Below are positions 3,401-6,400 of a stretch of DNA of 52,541 bases, one piece after another; position 1 is the stretch's first letter, and the number at the start of each line of letters is the position of its first letter. The DNA is from a virus (lineage: Duplodnaviria > Heunggongvirae > Uroviricota > Caudoviricetes). The position numbers were made by a program. The stretch lies in IMG/VR virus record IMGVR_UViG_2531839449_000043. The stretch is one strand, 5' to 3'.

Positions 3401-6400
3401 AACGTTCGCTGACGCCATGTAATAACGCCCGTTGTAAAGAATTGCTGTGCCGGGTTTAACGTCCTCGCGAGAAACTAATGCGGTTCCGTAGTGAGGTTTG
3501 AGCATGACAAATCCTCCGGTTAATTAATCCAGATATTTAATTTAATCCCCGATATGTGGTCGGGGATGGGGTTAATTAAAGATTTACGTTGAAACCAAAG
3601 CGGGAAGACTTTTCTGATGTACGGGAAATATCCAGCAATTTACGGCGCATTTCTTCCGTCAGATGCTTGAAGGCGTTAAATTCGGCGACAGCTGCATCGA
3701 CGTTATAGCCGTTACGACGTAATTCATTAAATATGCGCATTGCAGGGCTTGGCATGTCGAATAAGACGGAGGTATCAAGCTGCAATGTATTTCTATCAAC
3801 ATAGTTCATCGTGGCATAGGGGTGATGCTCTGAAAACCACGATAAAGGGAAATTGATATTCATCGCAGGATAAGACAGGGCCAGTTGTTTCTGTTCCCAT
3901 AGTTGTTTTTCCATGCGATCGAATTCAGCAATGTAGGCTTCCTTGAATGCAGCTGCTTTTTTGCCGGTGAAGCCCATCACCAGAAAAACGAATCCGTTTT
4001 TGGTGATTTGGTACATTGGGCGTTGTTCGCCTTTGGCGTCGGTGTAGGTAACGTCCGCAAAATTGCGGGCGTTAAATTCCGTAGAACAATCCATCAATCG
4101 GATTTTTTTTAAAACGTCGTCGTGCCGCTTGTCAAAAAATTCAGCAATAGCAATAGACGTTGTGACAACGCGACCATTGGTAATGGTGATTTCAGGTTGA
4201 GAAAGGGCAGGGATAGTAGCCATAATGGCAGCCTCCTTGATTGGTGATTGAGAACCACCGCAGGAGGTCCTAAGCTCGCTGGCGGTGGACTGTACAGGGT
4301 TAGGACTACTGGCAATCAAGGGAACCAGCCCGACCGAAGTCGGCCCCATACAGCCCACCATTGATAAGATGTGCGTGTATATCGATACAAAAAAAGACGC
4401 TGGCGCGTCTGTATCGCCTCGATTGTCAGCGGGGTCCTAATCCCGACACCCGTTTTATAAGGTGTTCGCCAAATATAGCCCCCGACATCACACGCAGTCA
4501 ATACCGTCCTTTCTCAGAAACGCTTTGGCGGTGCCGCCTGCACCCCAAAACATTCCCTGTATTGGTCAGCGCCAACTTCCTGCCAGTGTTGCCCGTTCTC
4601 ACGCCGTTCTCGCTCTCGCGCGGGGATACTCTCTCATCGACCGGATCGCACCCGATGATACAGCACGTTTACGTGTAGGGGTCTAAACAGGTCATTGACG
4701 CTGTAAAGCTCCAGGTTGTTAAAGAGCATTTTGCGGCGGGTTAAGTCGCGCCGTACGACTGATTTATGTAGCCCTGTGTAAGGGCGCGATGTTTCTGGCT
4801 TGGGTAAAATATAATAAGTGCAACTGATCATAGTCAATAGCGAGACTAATAATCTGGTTTAATTTTAATCTATGTGGTTGATTTTTAGATTAATTTATTT
4901 ATGTAAAAAATATAAGCGAGGATAATGCAGGTGGTGAGTTATGGAGGATGCGCAAAGAAAAACCGGCGCTGAGGCCGGTTACTCTGTGTGAGATTTGGCG
5001 TGAGGGAAAAGCCCCCGGATAACACCAAGAAAAGCAGCGAACAGATTCAGAGTTGAAGCAGCGGTCACCGCAATGAGCACTTCATCTGAAAATATTTCTT
5101 TCCCCATGGCGCGGCCTGTGGCAGACAACAACAAAACAGTAGCCCACCAGTAAAGCCCATACTTGGCAACTTTATAGGCTTTTTCTGCAAATTTTTCTCT
5201 TAATTCCCTGTTAGATTTTGCATCTGCTGCGCGCTGGGCGTTTAAATTATCTCCATCTGATGAAGATTCTGTCGTTGGTGGCGTATCTTCAAGGCTTGAT
5301 ATCTCTGTGCCTGGAAATTCTGCTCCGTTCGGGATTGTGATTTTTTCAAGTTCAGACATCAATGAATGTGGTTTGCCATATCAGTATGAAGAATTGGGCC
5401 ACCATCAGGTTGACCTTTACTCCATGCCGCGTTTGGTGCATGGGTCATGTTAGAAAGCTCGGTTCCGCTGTAGCTGCCGTATACCTCAACAATTTTGTCG
5501 ATCAGCCTCCCGGTTTCTGTGTCACCATTCTGAATTGTCGGTGTGATTCGTTTCCATTCTCCATCTGAATCAATGATGATGCTGATCATTTCCTGTATTT
5601 CATTGCTCCCATATTTCTTTAACATGTGATACAGGTGCGGTATTACAGGCCCGTAAGGCCACCGCGCAAACAGATCGTCGAATAATGGCTTTCCGTTGAA
5701 TAGTTTCAGATGCCACGACTGAGTATAGAACAACAATTTTTGTAGCTTCATCGGAGTTAAATCTTTGATCTCTCCCCGCTTAGCCTTGTCAATAAAGGCG
5801 TTAGCTACGGCAGCAGCTGAATATGCCATGCTCTACTCCGCATTTTGCGAAATTAAATGTATCACCGGATAGAATACAACAAAAAGCAAATTAGAAAAAC
5901 TGATAGAGAGGGGCGGAGGAAAAAGTTAGAGGTGAACAGCAGTCACGAGTCAAAGAAAACCCGGCACAGAGGCCGAGCTAGATCTTAAAGTATTTATCTG
6001 GTCCTGCACTCATTCAGTGGAGTAGGGGCCAAGAAATCGTACTCCGTTGAAGTGAATAAGATGAGAAGGTGCATCAGCCACCCATACCTCTGTTTCCCAT
6101 GCGATTTCACCAAGATATCGTCCCATGATGGAGCGATTTGGAAAAGCGGTCACATAGACAAGTCCGGCTGTTGATCCGGCAAACAGCCTGGCAAGCTCAG
6201 CATGCCGCTTCCCATCAACCGGTCCATGACTGGTGACAGACTCAACCAGTAGCAGCCAGTTTTTCGCAGTAAAATGTAGCACCACATCTGGCATTTTACC
6301 GTGTGAATCCACATCAACACCTAGCCCGGCCAGCAGTGGAGCGTCGAAGTAGCCCCACTTTTCGCCAGTGTCGCCAGCATAGACCAGCACGCTACCCGGA

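Follow-up and report, generated by a model that had tools for sequence, protein, structure and literature searches.

A gene-poor segment ahead of a phage Rha gene as the probable regulatory head of the early-left operon

What does a phage genome keep in some 730 bp that hold no evident gene? This question is raised by positions 4224–4952 of IMG/VR virus record IMGVR_UViG_2531839449_000043, a 52,541-nt stretch of Caudoviricetes DNA (referred to here as the window), where such a segment separates the Rha gene from a SocA/Panacea antitoxin gene and its 127-aa partner. A sequence-only reading had named these neighbours correctly, had seen a GC-rich and an AT-rich half with short, overlapping open reading frames (ORFs), and had offered a decayed gene, a structured non-coding RNA or the promoter region for Rha as explanations. 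In this study, we concluded that 4224–4952 is probably the minus-strand cis-regulatory head of the phage early-left (pL) operon, in which an AT-rich operator–promoter candidate is followed by an untranslated leader with a conserved RNA fold and by an IsrK/C4 cassette directly before Rha. Two of the three options thus apply together: C4 and isrK exceed their Rfam gathering scores and a third, covariation-supported RNA lies in the leader, while both an isrK promoter (4501–4472) and an upstream pL-type promoter (4837–4808) precede Rha. The decayed gene found no support in Pfam, PHROG and NCBIfam scans of ORFs and six-frame translations, and the strand logic and the probable operator–promoter nature of the AT-rich half had been missed.

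No credible gene was found in the segment by the ORF, Pfam, PHROG and NCBIfam scans. The G+C content is 0.49–0.61 over 4250–4750 and 0.25–0.27 over 4800–4949, and the ORFs within 4224–4952 (105, 74, 67, 61, 51 and 34 aa) gave no Pfam match and only weak PHROG matches to families of unknown function. Six-frame translations had nothing in NCBIfam and, in Pfam, a borderline Phage_ASH match alone, in a frame reading through the C4 RNA gene. The search for a gene remnant covered Pfam, PHROGs and NCBIfam, and no large protein-database search was made because covariation already favoured RNA. Neither a tRNA nor a tmRNA was detected there by ARAGORN. Annotated records that are nearly identical show no gene in the segment; LC710660 annotates two non-coding RNAs only, and RefSeq merely lengthens the Rha ORF upstream to an ATG at 4361. 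As judged from the aligned sequences, the conservation pattern across the segment is that of RNA helices, not codons.

The IsrK/C4 cassette ahead of Rha

The minus-strand cassette at 4501–4224 is very probably an IsrK/C4 switch of the P1 immI and Gifsy-1 design. It opens with the isrK promoter found by promoter scan (4501–4472; TTGACT at 4501–4496, an 18-nt spacer and TATATT at 4477–4472), followed by an IsrK-type small RNA (sRNA) at 4465–4390 (Rfam RF01394, 61.7 bits against a gathering score of 50), whose intrinsic terminator has its stem at 4410–4395 and a U-run behind it. The C4 antisense RNA follows at 4365–4278 (RF01695, clan CL00128; 78.9 bits against a gathering score of 45, model positions 1–87 of 87), with the recognition loop b' CCUUGAUUG at 4321–4313 and the single-stranded a' GUCCUAA at 4306–4300. 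Its target sites lie in the Rha translation-initiation region (4277–4224): a2, UUAGGAC at 4273–4267, pairs exactly with a' over 7 nt, and b2, CAAUCAAGG at 4243–4235, pairs exactly with b' over 9 nt and overlaps the Rha Shine–Dalgarno sequence AAGGAGG (4238–4232). IsrK carries matching decoys, namely a1 UUAGGAC (4440–4434), an exact match, and b1 CAAUCGAGG (4425–4417), which pairs over 9 nt with one G–U. The Rfam c4-a1b1 model scored 18.5 bits, below its gathering score of 46.7. Whole-molecule RNAduplex runs of C4 against its targets returned long, unrealistic duplexes and were uninformative, and the exact a/b complementarities were relied on instead. Both C4 and isrK are the non-coding RNAs annotated in LC710660, which is 99.9% identical.

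The whole cassette DNA aligns with Gifsy-1 isrK–orf45, with the hexamers of the promoter, the terminator and the double start AUGGUGGG..GUAUGGGG all within the alignment; of the Gifsy-1 isrK promoter region, which has been defined experimentally (PMC4825925), the window keeps ATTGAC as −35 and GGGGCTATATT as −10. In Gifsy-1, where experiments have established what promoter, terminator and double-AUG frame do, the short IsrK acts in trans on the read-through transcript, allowing translation of orf45 and anrP and leading to prophage induction (PMC4825925). The window shares with the IsrK–orf45 (STnc1160)–AnrP arrangement of Gifsy-1 the order of promoter, IsrK fold and terminator, double-AUG upstream ORF (uORF) over a C4-like RNA, and antirepressor-type gene downstream (PMC4825925). 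In contrast to Gifsy-1, where a separate 45-codon uORF is coupled to anrP, the orf45-equivalent frame of the window (AUGs at 4361 and 4349, overlapping C4) lacks a stop and continues in frame into Rha; RefSeq calls this fusion as a single ORF of 261 aa. The loop sequences also differ, the cassette lies in the early-left operon instead of downstream of antQ, and the effector belongs to the Rha family and not to AnrP; a BLASTP comparison of Rha with AnrP (STM2616) found no similarity (E=2.9). Rha itself matches antirepressor PHROGs and has an antirepressor-type C-terminal part. By RNA-level tests, the cassette belongs to the C4/IsrK family; its protein end, with another effector and the uORF fused to it, is a variant.

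The resemblance to the P1/P7 immI locus (c4–icd–ant) is of the same kind. In both, the C4 RNA (RF01695) and its target share one transcript, loops a' and b' have their complements, a2 and b2, in the ribosome-binding site of a gene that precedes or encodes an antirepressor-type protein, and the decoys a1 and b1 stand upstream. Unlike immI, the window has no icd, so that b2 covers the Shine–Dalgarno sequence of the Rha gene itself; its recognition sequences are other ones, and it lies within a lambdoid pL operon, not in a plasmid-prophage immunity locus.

The Phage_ASH match mentioned above (PF10554, 26.4 bits against a cutoff of 26) falls on the translation of the C4 gene at 4361–4278 (minus strand) in the orf45-equivalent frame. 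Because this frame is fused to Rha as an "Ash–Rha" ORF, the Ash "domain" of many Rha proteins may, at least partly, reflect the translation of an RNA gene or a uORF with two functions.

The putative pL leader and its folded RNA domain

About 40% of the segment, the IsrK/C4 part, is already known and annotated elsewhere, and the promoter–operator part is ordinary; the leader RNA is the sole item that is possibly new. This untranslated leader of the phi80 type spans 4801–4502 on the minus strand and begins with two hairpins (4785–4771 and 4760–4744) that precede a boxA; when the window is aligned with 9 genomes, the operator region varies and the leader behind it is conserved. Over minus-strand positions 4728–4541, identity is 94–95% with phi80, HK225 and Klebsiella KO-TP1 and 78% with Edwardsiella Edno5. 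The boxA found by motif search, TGCTCTTTAACAA at 4728–4716, occurs once in the window and is identical to the rrn boxA, and TTTAACAA is almost invariant in 24 diverged homologs. The published consensus for functional boxA sequences is GYTCTTTAANA (PMC5725501); GCTCTTTAACA at 4727–4717 fits it and is the sole exact match in the 52.5-kb window.

Behind boxA, an RNAalifold consensus from 24 non-redundant sequences predicts a closed multi-helix domain of 113 nt at 4691–4579. Its helices are P1 (4691–4686/4584–4579), P2 (4680–4678/4594–4592), P3 (4675–4672/4667–4664), P4 (4663–4649/4643–4629) and P5 (4623–4618/4613–4604), the last of which was added by inspection and includes an inner CGC-GAGA-GCG hairpin that in other subfamilies becomes CCC-GAGA-GGG, CAC-GAGA-GUG or a simple hairpin. 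The full structure has 31 pairs with 95.8% of cells paired. Compensatory changes occur in 13 of the 31 pairs, against 5.9±1.4 in shuffles (none of 500 reached 13) and 0–4 in slid controls, a contrast that is somewhat inflated by deriving the structure from the same sequences. The leader is very likely a functional structured RNA.

Scanning one genome per species and IMG/VR for the pattern gave 108 true homologs in several diverged subfamilies. About 108 prophage loci carry the domain, none of them with an annotation for it. The covariance model found exactly one copy per phage locus; it detected none in HK022, in Gifsy-1 or on the pR side of the window itself. Rfam gave no match to the leader at E≤10. 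Of 5426 complete E. coli genomes, 249 contain the element, one instance being the phi80 sequence carried by the laboratory strain NEB10-beta; no E. coli record among the matches listed annotates it. In literature on phi80 nutL, on Stx phages without N and on cis-acting anti-termination RNAs of prophages, we found no description of this leader; phi80 papers of the 1980s were outside our reach, so an earlier description is possible.

What follows the leader domain differs between phages. In the window, CGCCAAAGCGTTTCT at 4537–4523 is all that is left of the family's pre-gene block before the isrK promoter, and it marks a recombination junction. In many other prophages (loci L010, L012, L013, L062 and L093 of our set), a strong Shine–Dalgarno sequence and a mini-ORF of 2–3 codons, ATG AAG (CAC) TAA, stand about 20–40 nt past the domain, and the window has the isrK cassette in place of this mini-ORF. 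A second conserved non-coding block, CCAAAGCATTTCTCCCGCATCAGCGGGTAACGACAGAGGGTAAGGnATG (phi80 locus L004, 3296–3355, and many IMG/VR loci), combines a CCCGC-AUCA-GCGGG hairpin with a Shine–Dalgarno sequence and stands directly before many unrelated first genes of pL operons, like a portable translation-initiation cassette; it is this block of which the window keeps CGCCAAAGCGTTTCT.

The AT-rich half and its genomic setting

The AT-rich stretch at 4952–4805 is most likely the OL/pL operator–promoter, a reading based on synteny, on co-variation with the repressor in phage P13771, and on sites shared with OR. An intrinsic terminator (4980–4953; stem 4980–4961 and T-run, terminator scan) stands directly after the stop of the 4979–5362 ORF and closes the transcription unit of cI, methyltransferase, endonuclease, Panacea and 127-aa ORF. 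From this terminator to the leader, the promoter scan found a single promoter-like site, the putative pL, with TTGACT at 4837–4832, an 18-nt spacer, TATATT at 4813–4808 and a predicted start near 4801. A dyad-like site, ATTAGTCTCGCTATT (4850–4836), abuts its −35, and a second, ATCAGTTGCACTTAT, lies at 4828–4814. The former matches the OR site AATAGCTAGACTATT (9282–9296), which abuts the −35 of pR, at 13 of 15 bases, and a second, weaker site between −35 and −10 is common to the pL and pR candidates. The 13/15 match was also reached in 16 of 300 shuffles (~5%) and is weak alone, which speaks against the assignment; the operators are for this reason assigned mainly by synteny.

The synteny is consistent across relatives. 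The putative pL stands where phi80 has its annotated O-L and HK225 an annotated promoter, and the conserved leader lies between O-L and the first pL gene (labelled "N") in phi80, just after the promoter in HK225, and after the repressor gene in KO-TP1 and Edno5. An alignment of 14 loci (Enterobacter, Kluyvera, Escherichia, Klebsiella and Edwardsiella) shows that each locus has its own repeats in a variable region upstream of the start and that the transcribed leader is conserved. The similarity of P13771, an O104:H4-type phage, to the window ends at 4814, inside the −10, and from the −10 onward the leader is the same. Upstream, P13771 has a different AT-rich promoter with an ATCACC-N4-GTTATAT site that recurs in its own OR, and its cI protein is identical to that of the window in the C-terminal domain and divergent in the N-terminal DNA-binding domain.

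Two observations concern the promoters themselves. Hexamers and spacing (TATTGACT, 18-nt spacer, TATATTT) are the same in the putative pL as in the isrK promoter, and the two depart from consensus in like manner. At 4893–4852 (minus strand), the AT-rich DNA holds the direct repeats AAAAATCAACCACAT (4886–4872) and AAAATTAAACCAGAT (4866–4852) and the inverted repeat TTAATCTA..TAGATTAA; similar repeats, AAATCAAC/AAATCCAC, occur in the O-L region of phi80, and those of the window could be extra operators, an UP element or a site for a bending protein.

The surrounding genes are all on the minus strand, in the order cI (8524–9243), Eco57I-like methyltransferase (6960–8429), BsuBI/PstI-type endonuclease (6010–6963), SocA/Panacea antitoxin gene (5359–5829), 127-aa partner protein of Panacea (4979–5362, phrog_33656), the segment, rha (3576–4223, Pfam Phage_pRha, 215 aa from the ATG at 4223), kil, gam, recT, exo and further genes. 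This matches the layout of lambda, with cI, accessory genes, terminator, OL/pL, leader and early-left genes; the defence cargo at 4979–8429 (minus strand) occupies the position of the lambda rex genes, between cI and OL/pL. The segment shares 99.9% identity with Stx2a-converting phages of non-O157 enterohaemorrhagic E. coli (among them O145:H28, O103:H2, O111 and phage Lyz12581Vzw), and O104:H4-type phages such as P13771 are without the Panacea pair. Elsewhere in the window, in the Stx region, a tRNA cluster lies at 15044–15295 (plus strand; Met(CAT), which is tRNA-Ile2 in the Lyz12581Vzw annotation, Arg and Arg), and an Rfam match to the STnc100 sRNA (185.7 bits) lies at 16701–16902 (plus strand), about 1.4 kb downstream of the cluster and, as estimated from the Lyz12581Vzw annotation, just past stx2B.

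Possible anti-termination, rival explanations and meaning

What would such a leader do? The pL transcript opens with about 575 nt of untranslated RNA that include the isrK terminator, the only strong minus-strand intrinsic terminator in window positions 1–4500, and the pL operon is about 14 kb long. For these reasons, and because no N is recognisable, a modification of RNA polymerase by boxA and the fold was proposed. No N is annotated in Lyz12581Vzw or HK225, two complete relatives that both have Q, and ORF26 of P13771 (locus L003, 1423–2097), labelled "antitermination", is an anti-repressor according to PHROGs (phrog_1760, E=3.5e-120), with its C-terminal part common to the C-terminal part of the window's Rha. 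Prophages carry widely different first genes past the leader, none of which belongs to a PHROG annotated as an antiterminator; the phi80 "N" falls into phrog_25091, of unknown function. An N-like protein downstream of the leader in relatives was considered and rejected, as clustering gave many unrelated first genes; one large apparent protein cluster arose artificially, from translating a conserved non-coding block.

These results, in which element identities, complementarities, the conserved fold, synteny and the absence of a recognisable N were computed here, fit the following model. The terminator at 4980–4961 would end the lysogenic unit of cI, restriction–modification and Panacea genes, and CI on the dyads overlapping the −35 and the spacer would keep pL off in the lysogen. 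After induction, transcription would start near 4801 and produce the roughly 300-nt untranslated leader, whose rrn-type boxA would recruit NusB/NusE and other Nus factors; together with the adjacent 113-nt fold, this complex might make RNA polymerase resistant to termination, so that it would cross the untranslated RNA with the isrK terminator and then the whole operon without an N gene. Transcripts from the isrK promoter would yield IsrK and mostly stop at its own terminator, since such polymerases would be without the leader. Read-through RNA would carry C4, whose a' and b' would pair with a2 and b2 and occlude the Rha Shine–Dalgarno sequence, and a1 and b1 of IsrK would act as decoys, titrating C4 or remodelling the mRNA to turn on translation of the Rha-family, antirepressor-like protein.

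Cis-acting anti-termination for an N-less 14-kb operon is accordingly offered as a tentative function of the leader, somewhat short of even chances. More doubtful is the wider proposal that the boxA-linked fold (4728–4579) would be the first of a so far undescribed class of cis-acting RNAs for processive anti-termination in N-less lambdoid phages (among them phi80, HK225 and O104:H4-type Stx2a phages), in which an rrn-like Nus loading site would be joined to a put-like domain that would ride with RNA polymerase and let pL transcripts, but not those of the isrK promoter, pass the isrK terminator and express the early-left operon of 14 kb. Several points weigh against the model as a whole. Rrn-type Nus complexes are known mainly to counter Rho, not intrinsic terminators. 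The leader RNA is G-rich and C-poor and hence a poor Rho substrate, which weakens an anti-Rho rationale. Most homologs carry TGCTTTTTAACAA, whose T lies at a boxA position that was altered, along with one other, in a suhB boxA mutant without function, and boxA is also able to repress, as at suhB (PMC5725501). The Gifsy-1 activation logic may not transfer unchanged to a locus with an unrelated downstream protein and a uORF fused to Rha. Finally, CI binding to the proposed operators, anti-termination by boxA and the fold, the direction of IsrK/C4 control and indeed every activity proposed for the locus are what we infer from the sequence features.

If boxA and the fold were a nutL site for an unrecognised N-like antiterminator, in the style of lambda N/nut and not autonomous, this would agree with the position between pL and the first pL gene, with boxA as a defining part of nut sites, with the historical label "N" of the next phi80 gene and with the boxA and hairpin of Edno5 in its cro–cII gap, which resemble nutR. 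The window follows lambda OL/pL–nutL–N from cI through rex-like accessory genes, terminator, operator–promoter and boxA leader to kil, gam and the recombination genes. In contrast to lambda, however, the leader has a 113-nt multi-helix domain and neither boxB, N gene nor nutR partner. No boxB-type hairpin stands 8–15 nt past boxA, and the 24-sequence alignment holds no conserved hairpin in the 35–45 nt past it (P1 starts 25 nt and the P3 hairpin about 40 nt downstream); no second copy of the fold or second boxA was found on the pR side of the window or of phi80; and the variable first genes and the lack of an annotated N in Lyz12581Vzw, HK225 and P13771 also argue against this explanation, which we regard as rather improbable. 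The E. coli rrn leader (boxB–boxA–boxC) offers the same 13-nt boxA, with a hairpin upstream and a long untranslated structured RNA after it, whereas the window has a phage context, no recognised boxC-like sequence and only predicted Nus binding. HK022 put is alike in concept only, as a cis-acting structured RNA just past pL of a lambdoid phage without N and a candidate for factor-independent processive anti-termination. The put element, a boxA-free RNA of about 70 nt with two stem-loops, begins at +1 and is found at pL as well as at pR (PMC9378689). The window element differs in having about 113 nt and five helices, lying some 110 nt into the transcript, being boxA-linked and occurring as a single copy; a homology of the leader to put was sought by blastn against the HK022 genome and by covariance model, and none was found.

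A job outside elongation is also unlikely for the fold, if less so than a nutL site. It might serve in processing or stability, as a 5' stabiliser or as a target of RNase P, III or E; it might be released from the pL transcript as a stable RNA that acts in trans; or its folding during transcription might decide what becomes of the downstream IsrK/C4 switch. A closed multi-helix junction is of the kind recognised by RNases and proteins, the element is kept whatever gene comes next, and C4-family RNAs of P1 are matured from longer transcripts; processing has likewise been reported for STnc1160 (PMC4825925). Nevertheless, ARAGORN and Rfam detected nothing tRNA-like or known in the leader, the leader has no a/b-type target sites, and its invariant linkage to boxA and to the promoter start suggests a co-transcriptional role. 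For the AT-rich half, the alternative is that it is the tail of a horizontally acquired Panacea cassette or a constitutive promoter, with the CI-controlled early-left promoter elsewhere. The statistically weak operator match would allow this, as would the absence from P13771-type phages of both the AT-rich stretch and the Panacea pair. Yet at precisely this junction P13771 carries an AT-rich promoter with operators of its own, the scan found no competing promoter-like site between terminator and leader, and a variable operator region followed by a conserved leader is the pattern of the whole family; we therefore consider this alternative improbable. That the GC-rich half is a decayed protein gene, conserved through recent common descent only, is highly improbable. 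The 105-aa ORF on the plus strand (4361–4678), the 67-aa ORF on the minus strand and the many nearly identical copies could suggest it; however, no frame matched Pfam or NCBIfam save for the C4-overlapping Ash, the ORFs are not kept in homologs (the ATG at the window's boxA is CTG in phi80), and base pairs are kept by compensatory changes in diverged homologs.

With the regulatory head of the pL operon as the preferred reading, the gene-free gap is a dense regulatory region and not junk. The IsrK/C4 switch before a Rha/antirepressor gene is a plausible SOS-independent route of prophage induction, and hence of toxin release, in high-virulence Stx2a phages, and in Gifsy-1 induction is triggered by the homologous cassette. 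The leader, a conserved and folded RNA that bears no annotation, lies exactly at the position of lambda nutL in phages without a recognisable N. Its function is probably related to elongation, and it provides a concrete, mutable target for research into how such phages achieve long-range early transcription.

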